Shown in pieces: positions 6,515 to 44,643 of a DNA stretch of 61,255 nucleotides (its first letter is position 1; every line of letters starts with the position of its first letter). The DNA is from Candidatus Moranbacteria bacterium UBA2206 (GTDB lineage Bacteria > Patescibacteriota > Minisyncoccia > Moranbacterales > UBA2206), in the NCBI GenBank assembly GCA_002328565.1, contig DCUU01000020.1, positions 1 through 61,255 of the forward strand. The letters run 5' to 3'. The position numbers were made by a program, and so were the translations under genes. The notes beneath the pieces are model-generated. The model ran no database searches and was not told the origin of the DNA. It saw nothing but the letters and a program-made list of their open reading frames with translations.

Positions 6515-6601
6515 TTTTTTATAAATAATTTTAATTTACTAAAGTACGAATCAAGCGAAAATGCGAATTCGTAATTTAGTTTAATTAGTATTTTCGTAAA
6601 T

Positions 6602-7768
6602 ATGACTAAAAAACAAAAAATAATCATTGCTATTCTTGCAATAGCAATCGTAGCGGGGGGATTTTATTTTTTTCAAAAATCCAATACTTCCAATGTTAAG
6701 CAAATAGATTTGAACAAAAAACAAACCAGTTCTGGACCAGCTAACACGGGGCCGGTTAGTCCGATTTCTGGACTAAGTTGTGACAATTGGAATCGTCGTC
6801 CCGTAGCGGTGATGCAACCATCAGATGTGCAGGCTCGTCCGGCCGCCGGATTTTCCGAGGCGGATATGATAATTGAACTTCCGGCCTATACCTCATCTAA
6901 CACACGTCTTTTGGGCGTTTATGTTTGCAATCTTCCCAAAGAAGTTGGAGCGATCAGAAGTGCTCGTCATGATCACATTGCTTTGGCTGGTGGATTAGAT
7001 GCTTTTTTTGTTCATTGGGGTGGATCACATTTCGCTCTTGATCTTTTGAATAAAAATATAATTGACAGAATAGATTGTATGACAACTAATTATTGTGAAA
7101 GATGGAATTGGCAAAGTGATCCCGTAATGCGCATGGAAGATTCCGGACATATCACGGGAGAAAAAATCTTATCAGCTATGAAAAATCTAAACCTTCGAAT
7201 GGAAAGTAATTTTTCTGGCTATGCTCATCAAGAAGAATCTCCTATTGAGCAACGACCAAATGGAGGAAAGCTTCAGGTAGGTTTTGTCGAACCATATAAT
7301 GCTGAATATAAATATGAAAAAATTTCCAATTCATATCTTCGAGAATGGGGAAACAAAGAGGATACTGACAGAAACAACAATCAGAGATTAGCGCCGAAAA
7401 ATGTAGTGGTGATGTTTGCTAAATCTGAGCAGATTGTTAACAGTAAAGACTATAAAGCCTTGGGCTTACAGGATCCATGGGAGGGTGTGGAAACAATAAA
7501 AAATACCGGGGTAGAAAGTATTAGTGGGCGGTATAATAATGTAGAAATTGGCGATCCGTGGTATGACGAAACCGATAGCGGTCCAGCCAAATATTATTTC
7601 AATGGCAAAGAATATGAAGGAACTTGGAAAAAAGACAAATCGAAAATTGATAGTAAATTATTTTTCTATGATAATTCAGGAGCAGAGATAAAATTTGTTC
7701 CAGGGCAAATCTGGGTAGATATTCTAGAACCAGGACAAGCGCTTAGATGGGAACCAATTAATCAGTAG
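6602..7768 (+). CDS. DUF3048-family secreted/membrane-anchored protein
   Basis: N-terminal TM segment. RPVAVMQPSDVQARPAAGFSEADMIIELPAY resembles the conserved DUF3048 N-terminal block. Confidence 0.6.
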   Translation: MTKKQKIIIAILAIAIVAGGFYFFQKSNTSNVKQIDLNKKQTSSGPANTGPVSPISGLSCDNWNRRPVAVMQPSDVQARPAAGFSEADMIIELPAYTSSNTRLLGVYVCNLPKEVGAIRSARHDHIALAGGLDAFFVHWGGSHFALDLLNKNIIDRIDCMTTNYCERWNWQSDPVMRMEDSGHITGEKILSAMKNLNLRMESNFSGYAHQEESPIEQRPNGGKLQVGFVEPYNAEYKYEKISNSYLREWGNKEDTDRNNNQRLAPKNVVVMFAKSEQIVNSKDYKALGLQDPWEGVETIKNTGVESISGRYNNVEIGDPWYDETDSGPAKYYFNGKEYEGTWKKDKSKIDSKLFFYDNSGAEIKFVPGQIWVDILEPGQALRWEPINQ

Positions 7769-28621: not shown

Positions 28622-29665
28622 ATGACTAGAATAAAATTTAAAAAAGGATTGCAATCTAAATTTTTGAGTAGTTGTTTTGATCGGAGTGGATTAAGCTGGA
28701 TTGAAATTGCAAAAAAAATAGAAATTTCCCAAAGAACATTATTAGATTGGAGACGAGAAAAATATACTATATCCCAAAAAGCATTGGAAAAATTAGTTAA
28801 ATTAGCTGGAAAATCTTTAAAAATTCCACAATATACAGCACTTCCTGATTATTGGAGTATTGAAAAAGCTGCTAAAATTGGTGGTAAAGTTACGGCTGAA
28901 AAATATGGTGGTCCTGGCACTCCAGAGGGGAGGAAAAAAGGAGGAGAAATTTCTCAAAAAAAACGCAAATTATTTCCAGAATTATATTCGAATTGTAATT
29001 TACGTAAAATTATTTCTATTCCTCGAAAATCTTCTGCTCTAGCCGAATTTATTGGTATATTTTTAGGGGATGGTGGGTTTAGTAATGATTTTCAGATTGC
29101 CATTTCTTTTAACAGAATAAATGGACAAAATTATTATGAAAAAGTTGAAAAGTTGATTGAAAATCTTTTTGGAATCAAATCAGTGGTATATAAATTGTCC
29201 TCTCCTGTGAGTAAAAATGTCATAAGATTGGTGGTATCTTCAGTTGAGCTAGTTGAATTTTTAGAAAAAAATAAAATAAAGAAAGGGAATAAAGTTAGGA
29301 ATCAAGTTGATGTTTCTAATTGGATCAAAAAAAATGCAAAATATTCCAAAGACTGCTTGAGAGGATTGATTGACACAGATGGCGGAGTCTATTACCATCA
29401 ACATAGTAATGGCAAATGGGAATCTTTTAATATAGGATTATGTTTTACGAATAAGTCAAAGCCATTATTGGCTTTTGTAGAGAAAGTATTAATTTCTGAA
29501 GGGTTTCATCCTAAAAGAAGCTGGAGTGGTGATAATATTTTTCTCCATAGAGAAGCGGAGGTTTTACAATATGAAAGAAAAATAGGTTTTACTAATGTAC
29601 ATCAGAAAAAGAGATTATTAGAATATTTAAAACTCAAAAAAAGGAAGGGTGCAAGAGTGGTTTAA
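28622..29665 (+). CDS. Free-standing double-motif LAGLIDADG homing endonuclease with an N-terminal HTH-like region
   Basis: Two LAGLIDADG motifs: FIGIFLGDGGF and LRGLIDTDGGVY. The N-terminus (SWIEIAKKIEISQRTLLDWRR) looks like an HTH. Confidence 0.8.
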   Translation: MTRIKFKKGLQSKFLSSCFDRSGLSWIEIAKKIEISQRTLLDWRREKYTISQKALEKLVKLAGKSLKIPQYTALPDYWSIEKAAKIGGKVTAEKYGGPGTPEGRKKGGEISQKKRKLFPELYSNCNLRKIISIPRKSSALAEFIGIFLGDGGFSNDFQIAISFNRINGQNYYEKVEKLIENLFGIKSVVYKLSSPVSKNVIRLVVSSVELVEFLEKNKIKKGNKVRNQVDVSNWIKKNAKYSKDCLRGLIDTDGGVYYHQHSNGKWESFNIGLCFTNKSKPLLAFVEKVLISEGFHPKRSWSGDNIFLHREAEVLQYERKIGFTNVHQKKRLLEYLKLKKRKGARVV

Positions 29666-29730
29666 TTGGCACGCTTGGAAAGCGTGTGTGGGGCAACTCA
29701 CCGAGGGTTCGAATCCCTCCTCTTCCGCCA
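29643..29730 (+). tRNA. tRNA-Ser (anticodon GGA), encoded CCA
   Basis: Hand-folded. Acceptor ggaaggg/ctcttcc with one G-U pair, anticodon stem cacgc/gcgtg, loop ttGGAaa, long variable arm, T-arm gaggg-ttcgaat-ccctc, then gCCA. Confidence 0.85.
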
Positions 29731-29835: not shown

Positions 29836-30876
29836 ATGAAAAAAAATAATTCAACATTGGAAAAATTTAATAACTTTGTTATTTTTCAAACAAAAAATGG
29901 TAAAGTGAATATCGATGTTTTTTTTAGAGATGACACTCTTTGGCTTACTCAAAAGAAAATGGGGGAGCTATTTGAAGTTAATATCCCCGCAATTTCAAAA
30001 CATCTTAAAAATATTTTTGAAATTGGAGAATTAGATGAAAAAGTGGTTGTTTCCATTTTGGAACATACCACTCAGCATGGTGCGATAGAAGGGAAAACTC
30101 AAATTAAATCCGTTAAATATTATAATCTTAAAGCAATCACTGCGGTTGGGTATCGAGTGAATTCTCACAGGGCAATGGAATTTCGAAAATGGGCGACGGA
30201 AATTTTACACGAATACATCATCAAGGGTTTTGCGATGGATGATGAAAGGCTTAAGCAAATAAAACATTTTGGGCAAGATTATTTTGATGAGGCACTTGAG
30301 AGAATCCGCGAAATCCGCTTGAGTGAAAGAAGATTTTATCAAAAAGTTACTGATATTTATGCATTATCTGCTGATTATGATCCGAACGATTCGCTAACTA
30401 AAGATTTTTTTGCAACTGTTCAAAATAAGCTCCATTGGGCAATCACTGGTAAAACGGCTGCAGAGATTATCTATACCGAAGTTGACGCAAAAAAAGTGTA
30501 TATGGGGTTGAAAACTTGGAAACAAGCGCCAAAAGGTAAAATTTCAAAATTAGATGTTGCGATTGCAAAAAATTATCTTAATCAAGATTACCTAGAACAA
30601 CTAGAAAGAATTGTATCTGCTTATTTGGATTTAGCTGAAAACAGGGCGCGAAGACATATTGTGATGAATATGAAAGACTGGATTAGCTTTTTAGATAAAT
30701 TTTTAGCTGTTTCGGATTATTGCATCCTTACAAATGCGGGAAAAATTACAGCGTTGGAAGCAAAAATAAAAGCCGAGTCAGAATATGAAAAATATCGTGT
30801 GGAGCAAGATAAAAATTATATTTCTGATTTTGATCGAGAAGTGAAAAAGCTTTTAGAAACAAAAAAGAAAAAATAA
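29836..30876 (+). CDS. rhuM: RhuM-family protein
   Basis: TLWLTQKKMGELFEVNIPAISKHLKNIF...KYYNLKAITAVGYRVNSHRAMEFRKWATEIL...DERLK is the characteristic RhuM block. Confidence 0.85.
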   Translation: MKKNNSTLEKFNNFVIFQTKNGKVNIDVFFRDDTLWLTQKKMGELFEVNIPAISKHLKNIFEIGELDEKVVVSILEHTTQHGAIEGKTQIKSVKYYNLKAITAVGYRVNSHRAMEFRKWATEILHEYIIKGFAMDDERLKQIKHFGQDYFDEALERIREIRLSERRFYQKVTDIYALSADYDPNDSLTKDFFATVQNKLHWAITGKTAAEIIYTEVDAKKVYMGLKTWKQAPKGKISKLDVAIAKNYLNQDYLEQLERIVSAYLDLAENRARRHIVMNMKDWISFLDKFLAVSDYCILTNAGKITALEAKIKAESEYEKYRVEQDKNYISDFDREVKKLLETKKKK

Positions 30877-31764: not shown

Positions 31765-32128
31765 ACAACAATTTGAATCTTGGGTGGCGGAGGCCATTGA
31801 CAGTGTGCCGGAAAAATTTCGCGAGAAAATAAACAACCTAGCTTTTTTTGTGGAGGATTATCCAACACAGGAACAATTGCGCAAAGCTAAACTGGATGAC
31901 AAAAAAGACACTTTGCTTTTGGGGCTATATGAAGGCTATCATCAAGCGAAGAGAATTAATGTTGGACCGGTTTTTCCGGACAAAATTACGATTTTCAAAA
32001 ATGCGATAGAGAGTTTGTGTCAAACAGAAAAAGATTTGCAAAAGCAAATCTCAGAAACTGTTTGGCATGAAATTGCTCATCACTTTGGTTCGGATGAGAC
32101 GGGGGCGCGAAAAGCCAGTAAGAGATAG
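31751..32128 (+). CDS. DUF1025-family putative zinc metallopeptidase
   Basis: The C-terminal HEIAHHFG motif and length fit. The ATG at 31751 (MKVSKQQ) is preferred over 31709. Confidence 0.65.
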   Translation: MKVSKQQFESWVAEAIDSVPEKFREKINNLAFFVEDYPTQEQLRKAKLDDKKDTLLLGLYEGYHQAKRINVGPVFPDKITIFKNAIESLCQTEKDLQKQISETVWHEIAHHFGSDETGARKASKR

Positions 32129-32135
32129 CCAATTT

Positions 32136-32738
32136 TCAAATTTTTACTTTTTCTCCCCCTTGGCGTAAAATTTTAACTTTCCCATCTTTGATTTCAATTA
32201 ATGTTGAAGGTAAGGATTTTTGGAGACCTTCATCTATATAGCAATCGACAGAATTGCTAAAATATTCTCTAGCTTTGGTAATTGTTTTAGCGGAATGTTT
32301 TCCTTCGGGATTGGCGCTGGTAGAAACAAGTGGCCCAGTAATTTTGAGTAAATTTTTTAAATCAGTTTTGGCAGGTAAGCGAAAAGCTAGCGAATCATTT
32401 CCTCGATGTAAATAGTGAAACCTTCTATTTAAACAGGGCAAAACAACACTCACTTTTCCTGGCCAGACCGTTTCTAGGATTTTTTTGGTATATTTGTCAA
32501 TTTTAATTTCAAATAAAGATAAATCAGAAATTACAGATAAGAGTATAATAAGGGGTTTTTCCGGATTTCTCTTTTTTATTTGATAAATTCTTTCTATGCT
32601 TTTTGGCAAAAAAGCGCTAGTTGTCAATCCATAAATTGTGTCAGTTGGAATGACAGTAATTTCACCATTTTTCAATTTTTTTGCCAGAACGCTAGAGTGT
32701 ATTTTCATATTATCTAAAGTATTGCTCATTATAATCAA
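32136..32738 (-). CDS. tsaC: L-threonylcarbamoyladenylate synthase (TsaC/YrdC type)
   Basis: VIPTDTIYGL, ...KPLIILL..., and LRLP followed by GPLVSTSANPEGK. Confidence 0.88.
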   Translation of the reverse strand: MIIMSNTLDNMKIHSSVLAKKLKNGEITVIPTDTIYGLTTSAFLPKSIERIYQIKKRNPEKPLIILLSVISDLSLFEIKIDKYTKKILETVWPGKVSVVLPCLNRRFHYLHRGNDSLAFRLPAKTDLKNLLKITGPLVSTSANPEGKHSAKTITKAREYFSNSVDCYIDEGLQKSLPSTLIEIKDGKVKILRQGGEKVKI

Positions 32739-32848
32739 TTATACAAGGTCTAGAAGCAGTGTTTTGAAGGAACAGTCTCCCGAGAGAGAGGCTGTTTTTG
32801 ATTTTTGGTTAAATATAAAACAGTAGGGCTTGGGCTGTAATTAAAAAT

Positions 32849-32877
32849 TTGACAAAAATTAGTATCTGGAGTAGACT
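32849..32877 (+). promoter_or_regulatory. Sigma70-type promoter of the type I R-M operon; the ATG lies 6 nt after the -10 box (possible leaderless start)
   Basis: TTGACA (32849-32854), 17 nt, TAGACT (32872-32877), then gatttt and ATG at 32884. Confidence 0.55.
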
Positions 32878-32883
32878 GATTTT

Positions 32884-33459
32884 ATGAAAGATAAAAAAGA
32901 TCTAGAAGATATTGCGGAAGTGATTGCGGGCTACTCCTTCCGGACTGCTCTACGGAGTAAAGAAAATGCCTCATGTTTTGCACTTCAGGCGAAAAATATT
33001 TTGGAAAATTCGACTGTGGATGAAGAGAATTTGGACGGAATAGATTTTGAAAATTATCGCTCAAAAGCAATTGTGAAAAAAGGAGATGTAGTTATTTCTT
33101 CGCGTGGGAGTTTTCGCGCGGGATCAGTGAGTTTGGAATTAAAAAATATAGTCGCTACATCATCTGTTTATATTTTAAAAATAAAAAATGAAAATGTTCT
33201 ACCGGAATATCTGGCAATTTATCTAAACTCAATCGAAGGACAAAAGAAACTCAATGAAAGAGCGACTGGGGCGGTCATTAAATCGATTCGTAGAAATGAT
33301 TTGGAAAATATGTCAATCGTTCTGCCTAGCATAGAAACGCAAAATAAAATAATAGAAATATATAATACCGACAAAGAATTACAAAAATCCTTAAATAAAA
33401 AAATTAATTTGGTAAAAGACATCAATGAGATTGCTATAAATAAATTATTAAACAAATAA
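32884..33459 (+). CDS. hsdS: Type I R-M specificity subunit, half-size (single TRD plus conserved helix)
   Basis: 191 aa. KKGDVVISSRGSF, EYLAIYLNS, and LPSIETQNKII followed by a coiled-coil tail, as in HsdS half-modules. Confidence 0.75.
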   Translation: MKDKKDLEDIAEVIAGYSFRTALRSKENASCFALQAKNILENSTVDEENLDGIDFENYRSKAIVKKGDVVISSRGSFRAGSVSLELKNIVATSSVYILKIKNENVLPEYLAIYLNSIEGQKKLNERATGAVIKSIRRNDLENMSIVLPSIETQNKIIEIYNTDKELQKSLNKKINLVKDINEIAINKLLNK

Positions 33460-33463
33460 AATT

Positions 33464-34981
33464 ATGACTGCAGTAAAAAAATATACGCAAGAAGAACTTA
33501 ATAAAATTCTATGGGCAGCCGCTGATTCTTCGAGAAGTAGTGTTGATGCTGGTGTGTATAAGGACTATGCGTTGGTGATGCTTTTTTTCAAGTATCTTAG
33601 TGATCTCTCAAAAAAGAAACACGAGGAATACAAGAAGCGATTTGGCAGTGATGAAAAACGCATTGAAGAAAAGATGAAGCTCGACCGTTTTTATCTGCCA
33701 CCAAAAGCTTCGTTTGATTATATTTACAGCATCATTGAACAGGATAATATCGGTGAAGAAATAAATAAGGCATTGCACAAAATCGAAGATGCCAACAAGG
33801 AAAAGCTCGAGGGTGTTTTTAGTGTGGATTTCAACTCTGAGTCAACTTTGGGAAAACTCGAACAAAGAAACAAAATGCTCCGTCATTTGATTCATGATTT
33901 CTATAAAATAGATCTTTCTGACGCAGGCGATGATATCATCGGGAATTCCTATATGTATATGATTGAACGTTTTGGTGCAGATGCAGGAAAGAAAGCTGGC
34001 GAGTTTTTTACGATTACCGCAGTAGCAAAATTATTAGCAAAACTTGCGCAACCAAAGGAGGGGGCAAGAATATGTGATCCTTGTTGCGGAAGCGCGAACC
34101 TGCTTTTGCTTGCAGGCGAGGAAATAGAAAAGCAAGGTTCAGAAAATTATGCTCTTTATGGACAAGAATCAACTGGTTCAACTTATCAATTAGCACGGAT
34201 GAACATTTTTTTACATGGAAAAGATTCGGCTAGGCTTGAGTGGGGCGATACCTTAAACAATCCCTTGCTTGTGGAAAACGACCAGTTAATGAAATATGAC
34301 ACCCAGGTTTGCAATCCCCCGTTTTCTTTGAAAAAATGGGGCGCAGAAAATGCCGAAGCGGATAAATATAAAAGATTTTGGCGAGGTGTACCACCAAAAG
34401 ACAAAGGTGATTTTGCTTTTATCACGCATATGGTGGAAACTGCTAAGCCAAAAACAGGACGCATCGCAGTGATTGTTCCTCATGGTGTGCTGTTTCGTGG
34501 TGGTGCCGAAGGAAAAATCCGCGAACAACTTCTAATGGAAAATATTATTGATGCTGTGATTGGACTTCCGGCTGGACTTTTTCAAACAACTGGCATTCCA
34601 GTAGCAATTCTCGTCATTGATCGATCGCGCGAGAAAGGCGGAGCGAATGAAAAAAAGAAGGATGTGATTTTCATTGAGGCATCAAAAGAATTCAAACCGG
34701 GCAAGGCGCAAAACACGCTCACTGAAGAAAACATTGAAAAAATTTATAATACCTACGCCAAGCGCAAGGAGATTGAAAAGTTCTCTCGCAAGGTGAACTT
34801 TAAAGAGATTGAAGAAAATGATTTCAATCTCAATATCACGCGTTATGTGGATACATTCGAAGAAGAAGCACCGATTGATATTAAGGCAAATTTAAAAGAA
34901 TTGGCTGAGCTTGAGCCGGAGATCAAGGAGTTGGAAAAACAGATGGATAAATATTTGAGAGAATTAAAAATTGTAAAATAA
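33464..34981 (+). CDS. hsdM: Type I R-M N6-adenine DNA methyltransferase subunit
   Basis: N-terminal HsdM helical domain, motif I DPCCGSANLL and motif IV NPPFSLKKW. Confidence 0.95.
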   Translation: MTAVKKYTQEELNKILWAAADSSRSSVDAGVYKDYALVMLFFKYLSDLSKKKHEEYKKRFGSDEKRIEEKMKLDRFYLPPKASFDYIYSIIEQDNIGEEINKALHKIEDANKEKLEGVFSVDFNSESTLGKLEQRNKMLRHLIHDFYKIDLSDAGDDIIGNSYMYMIERFGADAGKKAGEFFTITAVAKLLAKLAQPKEGARICDPCCGSANLLLLAGEEIEKQGSENYALYGQESTGSTYQLARMNIFLHGKDSARLEWGDTLNNPLLVENDQLMKYDTQVCNPPFSLKKWGAENAEADKYKRFWRGVPPKDKGDFAFITHMVETAKPKTGRIAVIVPHGVLFRGGAEGKIREQLLMENIIDAVIGLPAGLFQTTGIPVAILVIDRSREKGGANEKKKDVIFIEASKEFKPGKAQNTLTEENIEKIYNTYAKRKEIEKFSRKVNFKEIEENDFNLNITRYVDTFEEEAPIDIKANLKELAELEPEIKELEKQMDKYLRELKIVK

Positions 34982-34985
34982 AAAT

Positions 34986-35822
34986 ATGACAAAAACTAAT
35001 AACAAACTCATTACAATTTTTGAAGAACATCCGGTGCGACGACATTGGGATGGAAAACAAGAACGGTGGTATTTTTCCGTGGTTGATATAATTGCAATTC
35101 TAACGCAAAGTACTGACCCAAGAAATTATTGGAAAGTGTTGAAAAATCGCTTAAATAAAGAAGGATCTGAGGTGGTTACAAAATGTAACCAACTGAAAAT
35201 GACAGCTTCTGATGGCAAAAAATATCTTACTGATGCTACGGATGTGGAAACAATTTTACGCCTAATTCAATCCGTTCCAAGCAAAAAAGCTGAACCAATT
35301 AAGCTATGGTTAGCGAAAGTTGGCTATGAAAGAATAGAAGAAATATCCGATCCGGAGAAAGCTCTTAATCGCAGTCGAGAATATTGGCAAAAAATGGGGC
35401 GAAGCAAGTCATGGGTCCAACAGAGAATGATGGGGCAGGAGATTCGTAACAAACTTACGGATTATTGGAAAAATAACGAAGTTAAAAAGCATGACGAATA
35501 TGCCATTCTCACTAATATTATTCACCAAGAGTGGAGTGATTTGTCGGTGAGGGGTCACAAAAAGTTAAAGGGATTGAAAAATCAAAATCTGCGAGATCAT
35601 ATGACCGATGCAGAGCTTGTTTTCACGGCGCTTGCCGAACTCTCTACTCGTCAAATAGCGGAAACTTTGGAAACCAAAGGTTTGGAAGAAAATAAAACTC
35701 CAGCACGGCGCGGTGGCCGGATTGCCAAAAACGCGCGGTTAGAGTTGGAGCAAAAAACAGGGAAGAGGGTGGTGAGCGAGCGAAATTATTTGAAATCTAG
35801 AATTAAGAAACAATTAAAATAA
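34986..35822 (+). CDS. BRO-N / DinD-like DNA-binding protein nested in the R-M operon
   Basis: WYFSVVDIIAILTQSTDPRNYWKVLKNRL...DGKKYLTDATDVETILRLIQSVPSKKAEPIKLW is a Bro-N-type block. The C-terminus (NLRDHMTDAELVF) resembles DinD-type proteins. Confidence 0.7.
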   Translation: MTKTNNKLITIFEEHPVRRHWDGKQERWYFSVVDIIAILTQSTDPRNYWKVLKNRLNKEGSEVVTKCNQLKMTASDGKKYLTDATDVETILRLIQSVPSKKAEPIKLWLAKVGYERIEEISDPEKALNRSREYWQKMGRSKSWVQQRMMGQEIRNKLTDYWKNNEVKKHDEYAILTNIIHQEWSDLSVRGHKKLKGLKNQNLRDHMTDAELVFTALAELSTRQIAETLETKGLEENKTPARRGGRIAKNARLELEQKTGKRVVSERNYLKSRIKKQLK

Positions 35823-35823
35823 T

Positions 35824-35845
35824 CCATCGCCAAATTTGGCGATGG
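35824..35845. promoter_or_regulatory. Perfect 22-bp palindrome at the junction of the DinD-like gene and the acidic ORF
   Basis: ccatcgccaaa tttggcgatgg. It overlaps the candidate start codons (TTG 35836, ATG 35842). Confidence 0.4.
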
Positions 35846-36303
35846 ACAATAACTCTATGAAAATTGAATTTAACAAAGAACAATTTGAAAACTTGATGAA
35901 GTTGGTTTATCTTGGAAACTGGATGGCCAACGCAAATCGCACAGACGATAGGATTGAGAAATATGAAGACTTGGAAAGTTATGTCTTTTCTTTTGCCAAA
36001 AATTTTGGATTGGAAGAATATGTGGATGATGAATCTGTTGGCGACGGAAAATTTTATCCAACTAGATTTTTTGAAGAAGAAACAGACATTAATGAGCTTC
36101 ATGATGAGTATGATGATGAAACTTTTTGGACTGAGCTGTCTGATCATTTGGGGGAGAGGGATTTTATGAGAAAATATTCAAAAGATGATTGGGATAAAAT
36201 GACACAAGAAGAGAGGTTTTTAAAAAGGCAGGAATGTGAGATTGGGTGGGAGGAGGAATTTGAGAAGAATGGGATTGAGAGGTTGGAGATAAGGGAGAAA
36301 TAA
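35836..36303 (+). CDS. Highly acidic hypothetical protein (155 aa)
   Basis: By hand count about 44 Asp/Glu versus about 21 Lys/Arg. No family recognised. It lies in the operon with the R-M genes. Confidence 0.55.
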   Translation: MAMDNNSMKIEFNKEQFENLMKLVYLGNWMANANRTDDRIEKYEDLESYVFSFAKNFGLEEYVDDESVGDGKFYPTRFFEEETDINELHDEYDDETFWTELSDHLGERDFMRKYSKDDWDKMTQEERFLKRQECEIGWEEEFEKNGIERLEIREK

Positions 36304-36354
36304 AAAATTGGAAAAACAGATGGCTAATTATTTAAAAAATTTAAAAATATTAAT

Positions 36355-37146
36355 ATGTGGCAAAAAATTGTTGATTCAAGGTTGGTTAAAAAATGGGGGA
36401 AACTAATTGCACTTTTATTCAATCCGTGGTTTTTGATTTCAGCTGGCATAACTGGTGTCGCGCTCTATCTCTCCGTCTATTATAAAGCTAATGTTCCATT
36501 TTCAAATACTATGACAATTTTTGGCAGTATTTTTGGTGGTATTGCGGGTGCTTTTTTCAAGGATGAATATGACAGAATATCTAACAAAAATATTCTTGAA
36601 AAAAAAGGTCGGTCAGCAGTTCGAAATATTGAAGGAATTCGAGCACAACTTCGCAACATCGAGTCTTGGATAATTGAATTTTCAAAACGCACGCGAAAAC
36701 AGGAGGATAAGAGAACTCTTGAGGAGGTGAATCGGCATGTCGCAACAATAGATTTGAACATAGCTGCTGGTCTTGCAGATTGGGTTGATATTGTTCCAGA
36801 GTTAAAACAAAAAGAGGAACTACAAAGAACTCAAAAAGATACTATACAATCTTATATTGATGAAATTTTGAAAAACAAGAAAACGCTTTTGCATGCGAGT
36901 AAACAAGATGGTGAAATGATTAAAAGAAAAATAGAAGATCTTGAAAAAGAAGTACGGGAAATAAAAAATGATTCAGGACTGGTGTTTGGTAATCTAAGCC
37001 CAGATTCCTATGTTTCTGGACATTCAATGCTTGGGTTGGGTTCAATTAATAATCATGGTCTAAACTCTTTCAATATTAATAACGAAGATTCTATGTTAGC
37101 CTCAGAACTTATAAATGGACATAAGGAAAAGAATGGTAAAAAATAA
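36355..37146 (+). CDS. Hypothetical membrane protein: two N-terminal TM helices plus a coiled-coil-like region
   Basis: TM1 LIALLFNPWFLISAGITGVALYLSVYY and TM2 MTIFGSIFGGIAGAFF, then a long charged helical segment. Confidence 0.55.
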   Translation: MWQKIVDSRLVKKWGKLIALLFNPWFLISAGITGVALYLSVYYKANVPFSNTMTIFGSIFGGIAGAFFKDEYDRISNKNILEKKGRSAVRNIEGIRAQLRNIESWIIEFSKRTRKQEDKRTLEEVNRHVATIDLNIAAGLADWVDIVPELKQKEELQRTQKDTIQSYIDEILKNKKTLLHASKQDGEMIKRKIEDLEKEVREIKNDSGLVFGNLSPDSYVSGHSMLGLGSINNHGLNSFNINNEDSMLASELINGHKEKNGKK

Positions 37147-37603
37147 ATCACAAAAAAATAGTAAAAAAAATGATCATAAGGGGAAGCCTTTTATAAATAT
37201 TGGTACAAAAAATTCTTGTCTTTTTTTAAATCTTTCAAAGCGGTTGATAGAAATTTTGAAGAGAAATCCTTTATTGTATTTTGCTATTGAAGAATCCCAG
37301 AAGTGTGCTTCCATCGACTGTTATTCTGCGGGAATACTCGCTTGTTCTCAGATTTTAAATTGTTATGGAAAGAAAACATCGCCAGTAAGACATAAGGTTG
37401 CACATGAAATCTTGATAAATAGACCCAATAAAAAAGACTACGAAGCAATATTTAAACAGTTAAAATCTGCTGCTGAAGAATCTTATTTTAATGAATTGGA
37501 TGGGAGCAAAAAGAATAAAGAAAAATTTAATAGGGATCTTGTTTTTGAATGGAGTGATTATGCAAGAGATCTTTTTATAGAATCAATAAAAAATGAAAAA
37601 TAA
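37115..37603 (+). CDS. Hypothetical protein (about 156-162 aa)
   Basis: It overlaps the preceding ORF's end and the hsdS start, which suggests translational coupling. The ATG at 37133 is also possible. No family recognised. Confidence 0.5.
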   Translation: MDIRKRMVKNKSQKNSKKNDHKGKPFINIGTKNSCLFLNLSKRLIEILKRNPLLYFAIEESQKCASIDCYSAGILACSQILNCYGKKTSPVRHKVAHEILINRPNKKDYEAIFKQLKSAAEESYFNELDGSKKNKEKFNRDLVFEWSDYARDLFIESIKNEK

Positions 37604-38807
37604 CTTATTACAAAAAAATATTCCTGATGGATGGCTTTATAAAACCCTGGGTGATTTTTTAGAAAAAATTGAGGGCGGAGGAACACCATCTAAAGAAAGA
37701 CCGGACTTTTGGAATGGATCAATTCCGTGGGCAAGTGTTAAGGATGTTGTTACGCATAATCCATATGATACGCAGGATCATATTTCCGAGGAGGGTTTGC
37801 ATAACAGTTCTAGCAGGATTGTTCCAAAAGGAACATTGATTGTTCCAACTCGTATGGCATTAGGCCATGCTGTAGTTTTTGGTGTCAATGTCGCGATTAA
37901 TCAAGACCTAAAAGCTTTGTATCCTAAAAAAGAATTATTGGATAAGTTTCTTTTTTATTGGTTTAAATCAAAAAAAGAATTTATAGAAAGGCTTGGTTCT
38001 GGTAGTACTGTTTCTGGTATTCAGCAAAATGAACTCAAAGCTATAAAATTTTTGTTGCCACCAATTTCTGAGCAGAAGCGTATTGTTTCAGTACTGAAAA
38101 CGCTGGATTTGGTAATTGAAAAATTAGTGAAGAAAATTAAGATCAAAAAAAATATCAAAAAAGGTTTGACGCAGAATCTTTTAACTGGAAAGGTTCGGTT
38201 GGCCAGATTTAATAAGAAATTGGAGCAATGCAAGGTAAATGATATTTGTGAAATAAAAAAAGGTCAAGAGCTCTCAAAAGAAAAATTAAGCAGTGATGGA
38301 AAATATAAGTGTATTTTGTATGGCGAGCTTTATACAAAATATTCAGAGTTAATTGGAAATGTTTTGAGTAGAACAAATTTCAAAGAAGGAGTTGTTTCAA
38401 TTAGTGGTGATATATTAATTCCAGCATCCACCACAACCAGTGCAATGGATTTGGCAATCGCAGCTTGCCTAAATGAAGATGATATTTTACTGGGTGGAGA
38501 TATCAATATTTTACGAGCAAAAAAGAAATATGATTCTAGGTTTTTAGCATTATACTTAACTCACGTAAAAAAACATAGCCTAGCTCGATTGGCGCAAGGA
38601 ATTACAATCGTACATCTTTATGGGAAAGATTTTAAAAAATTGAGCATTGAAATTCCTGAAATAAAAGAGCAGTCGGCGATTGCTGATATTTTTGTAGCGA
38701 TAGATAAAGAAATTGAAGCGCTGAATAAAAAACTCATAATCCTAAAAGACCAGAAAAAATATTTGTTGAATAATTTAATTACCGGAAATATAAGAATTAA
38801 AGTATAA
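37593..38807 (+). CDS. hsdS: Type I R-M specificity subunit, full length (two TRDs)
   Basis: 404 aa with two TRD and conserved-region modules (LPPISEQKRIVSVL... and IPEIKEQSAIADIF...). Confidence 0.9.
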   Translation: MKNNLLQKNIPDGWLYKTLGDFLEKIEGGGTPSKERPDFWNGSIPWASVKDVVTHNPYDTQDHISEEGLHNSSSRIVPKGTLIVPTRMALGHAVVFGVNVAINQDLKALYPKKELLDKFLFYWFKSKKEFIERLGSGSTVSGIQQNELKAIKFLLPPISEQKRIVSVLKTLDLVIEKLVKKIKIKKNIKKGLTQNLLTGKVRLARFNKKLEQCKVNDICEIKKGQELSKEKLSSDGKYKCILYGELYTKYSELIGNVLSRTNFKEGVVSISGDILIPASTTTSAMDLAIAACLNEDDILLGGDINILRAKKKYDSRFLALYLTHVKKHSLARLAQGITIVHLYGKDFKKLSIEIPEIKEQSAIADIFVAIDKEIEALNKKLIILKDQKKYLLNNLITGNIRIKV

Positions 38808-38811
38808 AAAT

Positions 38812-41800
38812 ATGTTAGAAAAAGTTCACTTTGACGAAGCCAGACAATCACAACTCACATTCATCGAGCTTCTTTTGAACATGGGATATAAATATATCTC
38901 CGCCGAAGAATCTTTGAAGCAAAGACAAAATGACACGACTAATTTTATTCTCTCCGATATCGCGGTTAAAAAACTTATGGAAATAAACAGCTATGAGATT
39001 GATGGGGTGGATTATAAATTTAGTGAAAAAGATGTGAGAGATGCAATTGATGAATTGGAGAATATCCAATACGAAGGTTTGATCGATACGGCGCAGAAAA
39101 TATACAATATCATTATGCCAACTAGTGGAGGCAAGACGATCAAGGTTAATCACAGTGGAAAGTCGATGTCAAAAAATTTCCGTTTTATTGATTTCAAAAA
39201 TCCAGAGAATAATGAATTTCATGTGACGGCGGAATTTGAGGCGACTGGCAAACAAAACATTCGACCAGACATTGTTTGTTTTGTGAATGGGATTCCATTT
39301 GCGATTATTGAGAATAAGAAATCGAGCGTATCAGTTTTGGAAGCAATTGGCCAATTAAACAGATATCAAAATCCTGAACATTGCCCAAGACTTTTTGCTT
39401 ATGCCCAACTTTTGGTTGGTACTAATAACAAAGAATTTCAATATGGAACAACAGGCACCCCAAATAAGTTTTATGCAGTTTGGAAGGAAAAAGAAATTTC
39501 GAAAGTTGAAATGGACGTGCGCGTTAAGAATCTCATCCAAAAACAAATTCCTAGCGATATTTATAATCAAATACTAATTGATTTAAATGGTGCAACAGAT
39601 GGACATATTCAAAAACTTGATCGATTGCCTACTCAGCAAGATCGTGGCGTGATTTCACTTTTTGAACCAGTACGACTTTTGGATCTGACTAAAAACTATA
39701 TTCTGTTTGATGCTGGCGTGAAAAAACTTTCTCGCTATCAACAATATTTTGCTATTCACAAAATGCTCAAGAGGATTGATGAAGAAGAAGTTACTGAAAA
39801 AAAGTTAGCTCGTCGAAAAGGTGGTCTTGTGTGGCATACACAAGGATCTGGAAAATCTCTGACGATGGTAATGTTTGTGAAAGCTTTGATTGAAAATCCA
39901 CATATCAGTAATCCGCGAGTGATTATCGTGACCGATCGAAAAGATTTAGACAAACAGATTAAGGATACATTCAAAAATTGTAATTTGAAGAAAGATGTTA
40001 TCCAAGCAACTAGTGGTCAACACTTGCTTGATTTGATTAAGGAAAAAAATCTTTCAGTTATCACTACCTTGGTACATAAATTTGAATCAGCGCACAAAAA
40101 AAATACTGGACTCGTTGATCTTGACAAGAATATTTTTGTCTTGGTGGATGAGGCACACCGCACGCAAAATGGAATTGCTAATCTGGAAATGAATCGGATT
40201 ATCCCTGGAGCTTGCTACATTGGATTCACTGGAACACCTCTCATGAAAAACGAAGGAGAAAGTTGGCGAAAATTTGGGGGCTATATTGATAAATATACAA
40301 TTGATGATGCCCTGGAGGATAAAATTATTTTGCCACTTATTTATGAAGGGCGATATACTGAAATGACACAAGATTCTGAACAGATAGATCGTTTAGAAAA
40401 ACGCCAAGCTGATCGTATTTGTGATAATTCTAGCAATAAATATATCGCTAAGGCCCAAAAGGCGATTAATGCCAAAGTTATCAAAGATAACCCAGGAAGA
40501 ATCAGAGAAATTTCCTATGACATTGAAAAACATTATTGCGAGAATTTTCAAAACACAGGGCTCAAGGCGCAGATTGTTGCTCCTTCAAAATTTTCAGCTG
40601 TTTTGTTTCAGAAATTTTTTGAGAGTAGTGGAAAAGTGCGAACTGCCATTGTGATTTCTGATGAGCATGAAGACGGCGATGAGGAGAATACTCATAAAAA
40701 AGAAGTGGTGGCATATTTGGATAAGGTTCGGGAAAATAATGGTAATGTGTCTAAGTATGAAAAAGATGTAATCGAAAGCTTTAAACATAATGAAGACGGT
40801 ATAGAAATTATTATTGTAGTGGATAAGCTTTTAACTGGTTTTGATGCTCCTTGCAACACGGTGCTATATCTAACAAAAGATTTGAGGGATCATAATTTGC
40901 TTCAAGCGATTGCGCGTGTTAATCGTTTGCATGAGAATAAGAAGCTCCCAAAAACTGCTGGATATATTATTGATTATTCTGAAAATGCCAAAAATATTAA
41001 TACCGCAATGAAATTATTTGGAAATTATGATGAGTTAGATGTTAAGGGAACGCTTATTGATGTATCGGAGAAAATTCAGGAGCTGGAACAAAGTTATGGT
41101 CTGGTGCATGATATTTTCAAAGAAATAAAATCATCATCGGATGATGAGGCATATTTGCAATTTCTTAGTGATGGTCCCAAGAGAGAAACTTTTTACAAAG
41201 CACTTAATGATTTTATTAAAAATTTGAATGAGTGTTTTGTGCTTCAAGAATTTGTGCATGAATTTGATCATTTGGATGTTTATAAGAAAGAGTTAAAAAA
41301 GCTCATGGAGCTTAGACGTGCGGCCAGTTTGAAATATGCTGATCGAATTGATTTAGCGCAATATAAACAATCGTTGATAAATATTTTGGATAAATATGTG
41401 GATGCGCGCGGAGTGGAACTTTTGACTAAACAAGTTAATATAACTGATCGTAAACAATTTGAAGAAGCGATTGAAAATCTGGGATCAGATAAATCTAAAG
41501 CTGAGGCAATTGCCGCACAAACTCAAAAGACTATTACTGAGAAAATGGATATGGATCCAGAGTTTTACGAAAGATTTTCCAAAAAGATTTCAGAAATACT
41601 TGAAGAAATGAGAGTTGGCAAAATGGCTGATATTGAGGCGTTGAAACAAATGAAGCTTATTCGCGATGATGTGGTGGATAAAAAAGATGAAACTCTTCCG
41701 GATAAGATAAGCTCTCACAAAGGAGCGGATGTATTTTATCGCAATTTGCGAGAATCTTTTGGAAAACACATTGCCGATGATCAGGTTTATATTGATGTCG

Positions 41801-42012
41801 TGCTGGATGTTCTAAATATTATCAAAGACGAAGCGATTGTTGATTGGTACAAAAACGGAGATGTGAAGCGCAAAATGATGAACGCTATTGATGATTATTT
41901 ATATGATGTGGTCAAAAATAAAAAAAACATAGAGCTGACCCATGAAGAAATGAAAGCGATTATTGATACCGCAATGCAATTGGCGGAAAATAATAATGAG
42001 GTTATTGCTTAA
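38812..42012 (+). CDS. hsdR: Type I restriction enzyme R subunit
   Basis: PD-(D/E)xK-like PDIVCFVNGIPFAIIENKK, Walker A HTQGSGKSLTM, DEAH box VDEAHRTQ and helicase C motifs (QAIARVNR). Confidence 0.95.
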   Translation: MLEKVHFDEARQSQLTFIELLLNMGYKYISAEESLKQRQNDTTNFILSDIAVKKLMEINSYEIDGVDYKFSEKDVRDAIDELENIQYEGLIDTAQKIYNIIMPTSGGKTIKVNHSGKSMSKNFRFIDFKNPENNEFHVTAEFEATGKQNIRPDIVCFVNGIPFAIIENKKSSVSVLEAIGQLNRYQNPEHCPRLFAYAQLLVGTNNKEFQYGTTGTPNKFYAVWKEKEISKVEMDVRVKNLIQKQIPSDIYNQILIDLNGATDGHIQKLDRLPTQQDRGVISLFEPVRLLDLTKNYILFDAGVKKLSRYQQYFAIHKMLKRIDEEEVTEKKLARRKGGLVWHTQGSGKSLTMVMFVKALIENPHISNPRVIIVTDRKDLDKQIKDTFKNCNLKKDVIQATSGQHLLDLIKEKNLSVITTLVHKFESAHKKNTGLVDLDKNIFVLVDEAHRTQNGIANLEMNRIIPGACYIGFTGTPLMKNEGESWRKFGGYIDKYTIDDALEDKIILPLIYEGRYTEMTQDSEQIDRLEKRQADRICDNSSNKYIAKAQKAINAKVIKDNPGRIREISYDIEKHYCENFQNTGLKAQIVAPSKFSAVLFQKFFESSGKVRTAIVISDEHEDGDEENTHKKEVVAYLDKVRENNGNVSKYEKDVIESFKHNEDGIEIIIVVDKLLTGFDAPCNTVLYLTKDLRDHNLLQAIARVNRLHENKKLPKTAGYIIDYSENAKNINTAMKLFGNYDELDVKGTLIDVSEKIQELEQSYGLVHDIFKEIKSSSDDEAYLQFLSDGPKRETFYKALNDFIKNLNECFVLQEFVHEFDHLDVYKKELKKLMELRRAASLKYADRIDLAQYKQSLINILDKYVDARGVELLTKQVNITDRKQFEEAIENLGSDKSKAEAIAAQTQKTITEKMDMDPEFYERFSKKISEILEEMRVGKMADIEALKQMKLIRDDVVDKKDETLPDKISSHKGADVFYRNLRESFGKHIADDQVYIDVVLDVLNIIKDEAIVDWYKNGDVKRKMMNAIDDYLYDVVKNKKNIELTHEEMKAIIDTAMQLAENNNEVIA

Positions 42013-42021
42013 AATAAAAAT

Positions 42022-42720
42022 ATGAATAAGTTTGTGTATGGATCGTTTGCGTATGAATATGAGCTTATACGGGAAAATCGAAAGACCCTAGGTCTCACCG
42101 TTATGCCCGATATGAGTATTTTCGTAAAGTGTCCGCTAAGAGCGGATGCCCAGCGCATTGAAACATTCCTAAAGAAGAAGTGGTTTTGGTTGCAAAAGCA
42201 ATTGAATTTTTTCAAGAAATTTCAAAAAAAGATTTACAAGAAAGAATATGTGTCAGGAGAGAGCTTTTTATATCTTGGCAGGCAATATCAATTAGTTGTT
42301 AAAAAAGCAAAAGAAGATAAAGTGGTTTTGCAAAATGGAAAACTAGTATTTTTTACAACTCAATCAGTGAGTGATGGTGTGCATACGCGGATATATTTGA
42401 ATGCTTGGTATAACAGACGGGCTCGAGAAATATTCAAAGATAGATATGAGGAGGTATTCAAAAAATTTGATTATGATCAAAAGTTGAGGTTGGAAATACG
42501 GAAAATGCCCAAGCGTTGGGGTAGCTGTGCGCGAGGAAAAAATATCGCTCTTAACCCCCTTCTCATTCACGCTTCAAAAGATTGCATTGATTATGTGATT
42601 ACTCACGAGCTTTGCCATGTGAAATATAAAAATCATGATAAGCGATTTTATAAATTGATGAATTCCAAATATCCAAAGTGGGAGAGGATAAAAGAGAAAT
42701 TGGAGATGAGGCTCTCGTAA
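42022..42720 (+). CDS. DUF45/YgjP-like (M48 superfamily) metal-dependent hydrolase
   Basis: The HELCHVKYKNH motif and 232-aa size fit. Genes of this family are commonly found next to hsdR. Confidence 0.75.
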   Translation: MNKFVYGSFAYEYELIRENRKTLGLTVMPDMSIFVKCPLRADAQRIETFLKKKWFWLQKQLNFFKKFQKKIYKKEYVSGESFLYLGRQYQLVVKKAKEDKVVLQNGKLVFFTTQSVSDGVHTRIYLNAWYNRRAREIFKDRYEEVFKKFDYDQKLRLEIRKMPKRWGSCARGKNIALNPLLIHASKDCIDYVITHELCHVKYKNHDKRFYKLMNSKYPKWERIKEKLEMRLS

Positions 42721-42837
42721 TACAAAAAATTTATTACGTAATATGTTAGATTATCTAGCGTTGTGTGCTAAAAGGATAAAATCTCAAATCTTGCAATTTT
42801 TTGCCTATTTTCTTGTAGTATAGTACGATTGCACTAT

Positions 42838-44643
42838 ATGGGAACCGAAATAGAAGAAATAAAAGCAAAACTCAATATAGTTGATGTTTTGGGCGAATAT
42901 ATTCGACTGGACAAGGCAGGGGCTAATTATAGGGCACTCTGTCCTTTTCATAATGAAAAATCCCCGTCTTTTATGGTGAATGAAGAGAAACAGTTTTGGC
43001 ATTGTTTTGGTTGTCAAAAATCAGGCGATATCTTTGCTTTTGTGATGGAAATGGAAGGGTTGGAGTTTCGAGAAGCGTTGAATTCATTGGCTGAAAAAGC
43101 GGGAGTGAAACTGCAATCCTACAGTCCACAAAAATCGCAGGAGAAAAATCGAACATTGGAAATCTTAGAATTAGCCACGAAATTTTATGAAGTGCAACTG
43201 TGGAAAGGGGAGGGTAAGGAAAAAATATTGAAATATTTAAAAGATAGAGGGCTTAATGATGAAACTATCAAGGAATTTCGTTTGGGTTATGCGCCGAACG
43301 GCTGGAGAAATATATTGTCATTTTTATTAAAAAGAGGATATAAAATTGAAGAAATAAATAAAACGGGATTGCTTGTAAAAAAAGAAAATTCGCAAGATTA
43401 TTATGACCGCTTTAGGAATCGAATTATTTTTCCAATCGGCGATTTTTCAGGGAAAATTTTGGGTTATACGGCGCGGGTGACTCCCGGAGGTGATGAATCA
43501 CAAGCTAAATATGTCAATTCTCCAGAAACGGACTTTTATCATAAAAGTCGGATTCTCTATGGCCTAGACAGAGCTAAGATTGAGATAAAAAAGCAAGACG
43601 CAATTCTTTTGGTGGAAGGACAGATGGATGTGATTGCTTCACATCAAGCTGGGATAAAAAACACTGTAGCGGTGAGTGGTACCGCGCTTACGCTCGAGCA
43701 AATTGCTATTATAAAAAGATACACAAAAAATATTCAAATGTTTTTTGATATGGATAGTGCCGGGGAAAATGCCACCAAAAAAAGTGTGAAATTATGTTTG
43801 TCCAGTGGTATGGCAGTACGAATTGTGAGCTTGGAAAATGGAAAAGACGCGGCTGATATGGCCAAGGAAAACCCGAAAAAGTTAGAAGAAAATGTGGCTG
43901 GTGCGTTGCCTGTTATGGAATATTTTTTGAAAAGGACATTTGAAAAATTTGATAAAAATAAAGTGGAGGATAAGAAAAAAATAACCACAGAAATGTTGGA
44001 TATAATTTCAAATTTAGAAAATGAAGTGGAAAAAAATTATTGGATAAAAAAAGTTGCGCAAGGATTAGGTGTTTCAGAATCAGCATTGACGGATGAGCTT
44101 AAAAAGGCTAGTCTTAAAGATAAGAACTACAAAGATAGTGGCCCGAAAGAAGATATTGAAAGAATCGGACCAAAAACTAAAAAAGAGATGCTTATTTGGG
44201 AAATGATCGGCCTCATGTTGGTTTCGAGTTTTGTTTGGAAAAAAGCGGGAGAAGAAGCAAAAACAAATAAATTTTTCTTGCCGGATAATCTTTTTAAGCT
44301 GATGGTGGAAAAGGGAGAAGAAGTTAATTTTGATTTAGCAATTCTCTTGAATAAAATTATAGACAATAGAGAGCTTAGTGAAAAAGCGCAAACTCTATTC
44401 TCTCGCAAAAAATACCAATTGAATTTGAATAATAATTTAGAAGAAATAATAATCGAAGATCCTTGGAAAGAATTTCAGGCTTGTCAGCGAGAAATGGAGA
44501 GAGAGGAAAAAAAGGAAGAACTGAATCGCATAGGGAATGATTTGAAATTGGCCGAAGAAAGAAATGATGTGCAGGCAAAAATGTTTCTGCTCGAACAATC
44601 AGACAAAATTTCCAAAGAGTTAGCAAAATTAATGGAACTTTAA
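42838..44643 (+). CDS. dnaG: DNA primase
   Basis: Zinc-binding CPFHNEKSPSF...WHCFGC, RNA polymerase core (RIIFPI) and TOPRIM (LVEGQMDVI...DMDSAG). The ATG at 42838 is preferred. Confidence 0.95.
   Translation: MGTEIEEIKAKLNIVDVLGEYIRLDKAGANYRALCPFHNEKSPSFMVNEEKQFWHCFGCQKSGDIFAFVMEMEGLEFREALNSLAEKAGVKLQSYSPQKSQEKNRTLEILELATKFYEVQLWKGEGKEKILKYLKDRGLNDETIKEFRLGYAPNGWRNILSFLLKRGYKIEEINKTGLLVKKENSQDYYDRFRNRIIFPIGDFSGKILGYTARVTPGGDESQAKYVNSPETDFYHKSRILYGLDRAKIEIKKQDAILLVEGQMDVIASHQAGIKNTVAVSGTALTLEQIAIIKRYTKNIQMFFDMDSAGENATKKSVKLCLSSGMAVRIVSLENGKDAADMAKENPKKLEENVAGALPVMEYFLKRTFEKFDKNKVEDKKKITTEMLDIISNLENEVEKNYWIKKVAQGLGVSESALTDELKKASLKDKNYKDSGPKEDIERIGPKTKKEMLIWEMIGLMLVSSFVWKKAGEEAKTNKFFLPDNLFKLMVEKGEEVNFDLAILLNKIIDNRELSEKAQTLFSRKKYQLNLNNNLEEIIIEDPWKEFQACQREMEREEKKEELNRIGNDLKLAEERNDVQAKMFLLEQSDKISKELAKLMEL

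Follow-up and report, generated by a model that had tools for sequence, protein, structure and literature searches.

Do the genes inside the type I restriction-modification (R-M) operon of Candidatus Moranbacteria bacterium UBA2206 form one defence system, or did they arrive there separately? The DNA analysed here, referred to as the window, is the whole stretch of 61,255 nucleotides (nt) of contig DCUU01000020.1, in which four genes, g1 to g4, are located on the + strand between the methyltransferase gene hsdM and the specificity gene hsdS. The initial annotation described them as a four-gene cassette with one sensor/effector layout and as a candidate novel defence module. The open reading frame (ORF) map and the profile searches bear out the nesting between hsdM and hsdS, and the embedding and the defence neighbourhood both hold. 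The single four-gene system fails, since the four genes have differing distributions and differing nearest DNA relatives, and one of them, g1, is already catalogued; in our reading, the module does not exist as a unit. Based on these observations, we favour, on a slight balance of probability, the explanation that g1 to g4 are passengers, that is, independent embedded accessory defence candidates. Most likely, at least three units were acquired separately at the hsdM-hsdS junction: g1 together with g2, then g3, and then g4.

Distribution and DNA mosaic of the inserted genes

When we compared the four genes across genomes, conserved co-occurrence, as expected of a single system, was not found. 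The genes are tightly packed and co-directional, as they would be if they had co-evolved as one defence system consisting of a DNA-binding sensor, an acidic partner, a membrane effector and a further component. Beyond the window, g2 accompanies g3 in three loci (designated here by L numbers), namely on one contig in L131 and in L133, and in L117 in the order hsdM, a gene for 267 amino acids (aa), g2, a 249-aa gene, g3 and hsdS. A copy of g1 at 64% identity stands directly upstream of g3 in L143, and another g1-type gene lies near g3 in L011. Against these cases, g3 is the sole gene between hsdM and hsdS in most loci, the direct neighbours of g2 are 75 singleton families with housekeeping genes among them, g4 homologues occur in none of the hsd loci surveyed, the plasmid homologues of g1 examined have none of g2, g3 and g4 near them, and each DNA block of the insert has its own nearest relative. 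Because the distributions differ, a single co-evolved system is largely refuted, and we regard it as very improbable.

Two narrower groupings were tried and rejected. One was an obligate g1-g2 pair: apart from L018 and the window, where a g1-like gene stands before g2, the gene follows NYN, DUF3800, LPD3 or hsdM. The other was a relationship between g2 and g3. The slot upstream of g3 holds other Bro-N/PDC-S13 variants in L101, L104, L128 and L131 and a RhuM gene in L001, and the recurrence of g1-type genes together with g3 fits both as frequent passengers at one site. Among the passengers at other hsdM-hsdS junctions we observed Bro-N/PDC-S13, RhuM/PDC-S05, DUF3800, NYN, LPD3, AntA, Shedu SduA_C, reverse transcriptase, HEPN_AbiU2 and DUF4145. 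Each of g1 to g4 has conserved homologues elsewhere, and all four are therefore real genes.

The first passenger, g1 (34986-35822, + strand), encodes a basic protein of 278 aa with an isoelectric point (pI) of 9.8. It matches the PADLOC profile PDC-S13 (PDLC04920) over its full length (E 1.7e-121, residues 6-273 on profile positions 4-271 of 286) and phrog_15286 (E 1e-95), and the BRO-N domain named in the initial annotation is found by Pfam at residues 23-111 with a marginal score (PF02498, 25.9 bits vs a gathering cut-off of 25.6). PDC entries are candidates from a published guilt-by-embedding screen (Payne et al. 2024, bioRxiv 10.1101/2024.01.29.577857). Judged from these profile matches, g1 is most likely the already catalogued embedded-defence candidate PDC-S13, a Bro-N DNA-binding protein, and the claim of novelty fails for this gene. 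Literature searches found no description of PDC-S13 under that name. The full-length plasmid homologues of g1, annotated only as 'Bro-N domain-containing protein', are single genes that are located in the cas4-cas1 gap of a type I-B CRISPR locus, next to an MNT/HEPN pair or within an island that contains SLOG. The case of plasmid pACLO of Arcobacter cloacae (L138) can be given in detail: the homologue at 5992-6888 is full-length, shares 51% identity and has cas4 on one side and cas1 on the other within a type I-B CRISPR-Cas operon.

Directly 3' of the g1 stop codon lies a perfect 22-nt palindrome, CCATCGCCAAATTTGGCGATGG (35824-35845), of which no copy is expected by chance. In L001 (6805-6826), a copy that differs by one mismatch comes after the stop codon of the unrelated RhuM gene upstream of g3. 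It could be an RNA hairpin, a recombination site or an operator site. As a widespread cassette end it was rejected, being present only in the window and L001/L002 and in none of the other 135 loci scanned.

The second passenger, g2 (35857-36303, + strand), encodes a protein of about 148 aa; its ORF opens at 35836, and the likely true start is the ATG at 35857, as in the homologues. With a pI of 4.35 and a net charge of -22, it is as acidic as first described. The family is widespread. We found 284 homologues. A scan of species genomes gave 260 relatives, which are distributed over Patescibacteria, Omnitrophota, Nitrospirota, Elusimicrobia, Aminicenantes and cultured Leptospira. Among the best 80 of these 260 relatives, which were used for the locus analysis, 18 are located in an hsdM-to-hsdS context, mostly directly before hsdS. 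In the Leptospira loci L071, L076, L081, L082, L084 and L086, the g2 homologue has a conserved position directly 5' of a gene that, by eye, resembles one for a rumA-like RNA methyltransferase; this is a non-defence context for a gene that is otherwise often embedded in R-M operons. The AlphaFold model of g2 is confident, with a predicted local distance difference test (pLDDT) value of 84. Foldseek found no fold match for it in PDB or BFVD (best E about 0.9-1.5), and a PDB profile search with the g2 alignment A2 gave no hits. The protein is acidic, as DNA mimics of the Ocr/ArdA type are, but has no fold or sequence likeness to them in PDB and BFVD. It may be an acidic nucleic-acid mimic or a regulator.

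These properties of g2 bear on another reading, in which the passengers would add nothing to host defence. They would be neutral or selfish cargo that collected in a 'genomic sink', or they would serve counter-defence, g2 being for example a DNA mimic that alleviates restriction and g1 the remnant of a prophage antirepressor. The strong acidity of g2 and the location of most g2 loci outside defence contexts, including the conserved Leptospira housekeeping neighbourhoods, agree with it, as do the Bro-N proteins, which by their annotation are typical of phages and antirepressors, and the relatives of g4 on small Replic_Relax contigs. However, neither g2 nor g3 was found in the 2.9 million viral contigs of IMG/VR, by which a phage origin of these two genes was rejected; the g2 model matches no PDB fold (best E 1.5); the fellow passengers at the junctions belong mostly to recognised defence families; and 21 invariant columns in the g3 alignment argue for a selected function. 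We regard cargo or counter-defence as a rather improbable account of the insert.

The last passenger, g4, occupies an ORF at 37115-37603 on the + strand with a likely start at the ATG at 37133, and its product is a small basic protein of 156 aa. The coordinates agree with the first description of a protein of about 160 aa whose ends overlap both neighbours, g3 and hsdS. Two homologues were found. The one that was looked up, P0046, lies on six short contigs, on each of which its gene stands directly behind one of about 300 aa; on the sole contig with a family call, the latter encodes a replication-relaxation protein, Replic_Relax (L012 39-950). This context suggests that g4 came from a small plasmid-like element. 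A conserved RHxxAHE motif, R86-H87-K-V-A-H91-E, which contains the Rx4H signature of HEPN proteins, is invariant in all three sequences of the family (about 135-156 aa), and in L003 and L115, genes of about 150 aa that precede hsdS show R[DN]xxxH at the corresponding relative position. No HEPN family matched g4 in the profile searches, and hhalign comparisons with junction passengers were not significant. Going by its motif, g4 is possibly a small HEPN-type RNase. As to recurrence inside hsd operons or defence islands, it was seen for g3 (29 of 38 informative loci, described below) and in part for g2 (18 of 80), and for g4 the homologue looked up lies outside R-M contexts.

The DNA comparison points in the same direction as the distributions, and the operon very probably has a mosaic architecture. 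First, the half-hsdS and hsdM region (32992-34983) shows 74-75% DNA identity to L018, L101, L104 and L128, and the 3' part of hsdS together with hsdR and the YgjP gene shows 69% to L101 and L104. Second, the g2 DNA is most similar to L018 and L020 (75%). Third, the g3 block (36326-37160) matches L001 6841-7674 with 80.5% identity over 835 nt. The g3 proteins of the window and L001 are 86% identical, whereas the HsdM proteins are only 39% and the HsdR proteins only 28.5% identical. In the backbone relatives L101 and L104, the DNA match of g3 is confined to a conserved core at 67-70%. On these alignments, the backbone (half-hsdS, hsdM, the 3' part of hsdS, hsdR and YgjP) belongs to one hsd lineage and the g3 block to another.

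The block boundaries coincide with short, conserved junction sequences, namely the 3'-terminal 25-80 nt of hsdM and about 28 nt at the 5' end of hsdS, which are duplicated at the insert edges. On the left, two copies of the hsdM 3' tail (about 49 nt; direct repeat D2, alignment A6) flank g1-g2. Copy 1 is at 34931-34979, and copy 2, a non-coding remnant directly 5' of g3 at 36308-36356, forms the left edge of the 835-nt block in common with L001; both are on the + strand, and their 26-nt core is 92% identical (blastn-short E 1.8e-6 vs a 20-bit control). In L018, the closest locus that also carries g1-g2, a nearly perfect copy of about 80 nt of the hsdM tail stands behind g2 (E 3e-24), and a further copy behind the next passenger. 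L128 shows the same duplication (E 7e-6), and in loci where g3 abuts hsdM, the same tail motif precedes the g3 ATG. On the right, the homology with L001 stops at 37160, within the conserved hsdS head ATGnnAAnAATAAnnnnCAAAAAAATA. This head opens hsdS in L001 (MERNKSQKNIPQGW) and opens g4 in the window (MVKNKSQKN-SKKND...), where the first nine codons of g4 (37133-37161) derive from an hsdS 5' end and the actual hsdS head is located 3' of g4. A duplicated hsdS head with the identical breakpoint is also seen around other inserts, namely one of 211 aa in L141 and L143 (E 9e-11) and one of two genes in L003 (E 1e-9).

Based on these boundaries, we propose that passengers would be exchanged by recombination at the conserved hsdM tail and hsdS head and would be expressed from the hsd operon, often through translational coupling, with g4 apparently borrowing the hsdS start codon. 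Several loci support recombination at the junctions, but since the duplications reach significance in few of them, it is not established as a general mechanism. The hsdM-tail duplication was rejected as a universal signature, since it is significant in no loci but the window, L018 and L128, with a marginal value in L001. As a separate observation, L018 carries three hsdM-tail copies (about 2010-2092, 3383-3465 and 4361-4415), one after each successive passenger, an arrangement that resembles a cassette array.

The g3 family and its partners

In order to characterize the family of g3 (36355-37146, + strand), we aligned 40 sequences (alignment A1). The description of g3 as a 263-aa protein with two transmembrane (TM) helices and a coiled-coil-like region is upheld by hydropathy, alignment and the AlphaFold model alike. 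The alignment contains two hydrophobic helices (mean Kyte-Doolittle value 1.5 in the family), the second of which is rich in small residues (GSIFGGIAGAF) with GxxxG-like motifs. An invariant juxtamembrane block, LEKKGxSxxRN...Q, follows the second helix, and W105, E124, R127, H128, T131, D142, W143, D145 and P148 are also invariant; the invariant polar residues fall within positions 81-150. A coiled coil (KKKIxDLEKQIKEIK) lies C-terminal to the invariant region, and a CxxC...CxxC zinc ribbon, lost in the subclade of the window, closes most family members. The AlphaFold model (pLDDT 74) shows helices at 24-42 and 47-75, four long helices up to residue 207 and a disordered tail. The Lys/Arg-rich N-terminus suggests that both termini are cytoplasmic.

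The family comprises 44 close homologues, and an exhaustive search with a hidden Markov model (HMM) gave 535 cluster representatives at E<=1e-3, 335 of them at E<=1e-10, with clusters defined at 50% identity. For g2, g3 and g4, nothing above noise was found in Pfam, NCBIfam, PADLOC 2.0 and PHROGs, as the initial annotation had anticipated in recognising none of the three as a known system. The models of g2 and g3 have no PDB match at E<0.6, the best for g3 being generic coiled coils (E 0.63), and the PDB profile searches with A1, A2 and the g4 alignment A4 returned coiled-coil or zinc-finger noise at most. Ten distant g3 members likewise have no Pfam family, and the literature searches found no description of the g3 family. 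Membership in the SLATT group was rejected, with no Pfam SLATT hit at E<=0.1 for g3 and the ten distant members and with only 3.6% probability in the hhalign comparison of A1 with a SLATT_4 protein. On this basis, g3 represents an unannotated R-M-associated family that is new here.

The genomic context of g3 was examined in 42 non-redundant loci, made up of exact-protein look-ups and 40 metagenome loci, which were labelled with iterated HMMs for HsdM, HsdS, HsdR and YgjP. A methyltransferase gene is found 5' of g3 in 24 of the 33 loci with informative upstream DNA, and 18 of these 24 abut g3. On the other side, hsdS lies 3' of g3 in 26 of the 32 loci with informative downstream DNA, with 21 of the 26 abutting or overlapping it. 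Taken together, 29 of 38 informative loci have the upstream methyltransferase, the downstream hsdS, or both. The partner HsdM proteins fall into at least four clades, namely a MerR-fused type of about 568 aa, the window type with half-S plus 505 aa, a type of about 650 aa and an Eco57I-like type of 419 aa. Even the exceptions outside the hsdM/hsdS setting belong for the most part to R-M or defence loci: two N6_N4 methyltransferases with HNH (L112), Tsp45I (L119), a DpnII system (L145), a LexA-methyltransferase and Mrr (Mrr_cat; L122), a SMODS-SLATT pair two genes from the g3 homologue (L007), and a GHKL ATPase with NERD and Mrr (L009). Only L136 and L137, which are weak or distant, look unrelated. 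A SMODS/SLOG signal-enzyme partner is absent from the window and from the 29 of 38 loci in R-M context, and is near g3 in L007 only.

Two further features of the MerR-hsdM operons were noted. Large serine recombinase genes (Resolvase, Recombinase, Zn_ribbon_recom) stand directly 5' of the g3-carrying operons of L003 (2331-6131) and L005 (4823-6139), and these whole operons may be located on integrative elements. In addition, the gap between hsdS and hsdR is a second embedding slot (L001 8867-10216, L146 4333-5667 and L005 10029-11051), which holds unannotated genes of 340-449 aa (30% identity between L001 and L146) or, in L003 and L141, small GIY-YIG-like genes.

How would g3 act? Its sensor-like helical domain would face the cytoplasm, anchored by the glycine-rich two-helix hairpin, and our best guess is that g3 could act alone as a back-up or abortive-infection effector that damages the membrane once restriction fails. 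It would travel with R-M genes of several types and would not be tied to one particular HsdM. We offer this membrane-acting defence mechanism tentatively, as a reading for which the chances are about one in three.

A rival reading is that g3 is an accessory of the R-M complex, either a membrane tether or activator that places the complexes where foreign DNA enters, or a regulator of R-M. The position of g3 speaks for it: in nearly every case there is a DNA methyltransferase gene before it and an hsdS gene that comes next or overlaps it, the start and stop codons being separated by 0-30 nt, and g3 is also found behind type II methyltransferases or restriction enzymes. The predicted cytoplasmic termini, the long helical arm and the terminal zinc ribbon of most members would suit such a role as well. 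However, the g3 proteins of the window and L001 are far more alike than their HsdM proteins, that is, there is no co-variation, and g3 also occurs beside the SMODS-SLATT pair and the GHKL ATPase with no adjacent R-M gene; moreover, to our knowledge, most type I systems work without such a protein. Because g3 does not co-vary with HsdM and occurs with type I R-M, type II R-M and other defence genes, we favour an autonomous module over a dedicated subunit, and the accessory role appears unlikely, if not negligibly so.

Here, we need to consider several points that weigh against independent defence passengers with g3 as an autonomous effector. First, the tight, coupled position of g3 between M and S would equally fit an accessory subunit or a regulator. 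Second, g3 has no detectable kinship to any known effector by Pfam, Foldseek or hhalign. Third, 62 of the 80 g2 loci lie outside R-M contexts, some of them adjoining housekeeping genes. Fourth, Bro-N genes recur upstream of g3 (window, L143 and L011, as well as L101, L104, L128 and L131), and a functional link between g1 and g3 is still conceivable. Fifth, a significant hsdM-tail copy is present in only about 4 of 19 multi-passenger loci and the hsdS-head copy in three loci. Finally, the functions given to g1 to g4 here are predictions. A bolder pair of linked ideas can also be put forward, which we consider a long shot: g3 would be a new class of R-M companions, anchored in the membrane and equipped with a cytoplasmic helical arm and a zinc ribbon, that couples several types of restriction enzymes to the envelope or triggers membrane collapse once restriction is overcome, and the conserved hsdM tail and hsdS head would be docking sites that make the hsd operons of Patescibacteria integron-like platforms, on which short-homology recombination swaps defence cassettes.

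The operon backbone and the rest of the window

The operon extends over 32884-42720, with all genes on the + strand. The ORF map gives nine genes, one fewer than the ten first counted, in the order half-hsdS, hsdM, g1, g2, g3, g4, hsdS, hsdR and YgjP-like peptidase, spaced by 4-51 nt or overlapping by 11-32 nt. The Pfam, NCBIfam and PADLOC profiles confirmed the family assignments made earlier for the five backbone genes. The half-hsdS (32884-33459) has one target-recognition domain (Pfam Methylase_S E 3e-12, one stretch), and hsdM (33464-34981) encodes a type I methyltransferase (TIGR00497, 266.9 bits with a cut-off of 242.75; N6_Mtase E 1e-93). Downstream of the insert, hsdS (37593-38807) has two target-recognition domains (Methylase_S E 7e-46 in two stretches; PADLOC Specificity_I E 1.5e-69), hsdR (38812-42012) matches TIGR00348 with 485 bits (cut-off 284.55) and contains HSDR_N, SWI2_SNF2 and T1R_D3-like regions, and the last gene (42022-42720) encodes a YgjP-like (DUF45) metallopeptidase (PF01863 E 3e-53). 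With HsdM, HsdS and HsdR in one operon, this is a type I R-M system.

YgjP is the usual closing gene of such operons (L001, L003, L005, L100, L101, L104, L107, L108 and L146), and the order of half-S followed by hsdM is also found in L018, L020, L101, L104 and L128. A half-size hsdS 5' of hsdM is thus kept in this hsd lineage besides the full downstream hsdS, which suggests one operon with possibly two specificities. A promoter-like site, TTGACA-17-TAGACT (32849-32877, + strand), lies just 5' of the half-hsdS; it is a consensus match only, and such sites are no more numerous in the region than shuffling predicts. In 32000-43500, terminator-like hairpins occur at about three times the frequency seen in shuffled sequence (19 vs 6.4 +/- 2.8), several of them within coding regions of the operon.

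The remainder of the window contains housekeeping genes, such as those for PolA, DnaG, RpoD, pyruvate kinase and a Mur ligase, and the GC content is even throughout the region, so the operon is chromosomal. The closest relatives are metagenome bins of Patescibacteria, also known as the candidate phyla radiation (CPR). A RhuM-family gene (29836-30876) is located directly 3' of the sole tRNA gene of the window, tRNA-Ser GGA (29643-29730), and its product is 43% identical to the RhuM embedded in the L001 hsd operon. Pfam also reported an ORF6N-domain protein within the window and assigned four separate window proteins to the TrmB transcriptional-regulator family, which is unusual for a 61-kb piece of a small genome.

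Comparison with known systems

The principle of 'guilt-by-embedding', a published and partly validated predictor that leaves the mechanism of embedding open (bioRxiv 10.1101/2024.01.29.577857), builds on defence genes found within type I R-M, BREX, DISARM or Hma operons. Like the cases described there, g1 to g4 are nested within a type I R-M operon and share its strand, g1 belongs to PDC-S13 itself, and related loci carry PDC-S05 (RhuM), NYN, DUF3800 and Shedu. Unlike them, g2, g3 and g4 are not in PADLOC 2.0, and the block edges here have a duplicated hsdM tail and hsdS head. With these duplications, there is a first concrete hint at the way in which embedding comes about. The published embedding screens drew on RefSeq and missed lineages such as Patescibacteria. 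The link between g3 and R-M is positional. Most validated embedded systems show a looser one, and g3 is therefore a well-defined target for functional work.

HEPN-domain proteins, for example DUF4145 and AbiU2, are reportedly found in R-M operons, according to Anantharaman and colleagues in 2013. Like these, g4 is small, has the Rx4H motif and is located directly 5' of hsdS; unlike them, it matches no HEPN family profile. The anticodon nucleases PrrC and RloC reside inside hsd (prr) loci and serve as a latent back-up when restriction is defeated. What the insert has in common with them is the position within a type I R-M operon and the proposed back-up logic. The parallel with PrrC drawn in the initial annotation goes no further, since Pfam, NCBIfam and PADLOC detected neither an ABC-ATPase nor an anticodon-nuclease domain in g1 to g4, which comprise one membrane protein and small proteins. 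The two-TM effectors (SLATT, and the 2TM effectors of CBASS, Pycsar and retrons) resemble g3 in the N-terminal hairpin, the cytoplasmic location predicted for both ends and the soluble helical domain, whereas g3 has neither SLATT profile likeness nor a signalling-enzyme partner and is linked to R-M genes instead. By analogy with these systems, the effector role proposed for g3 would most simply be read as PrrC-like in its logic and two-TM-effector-like in its output.

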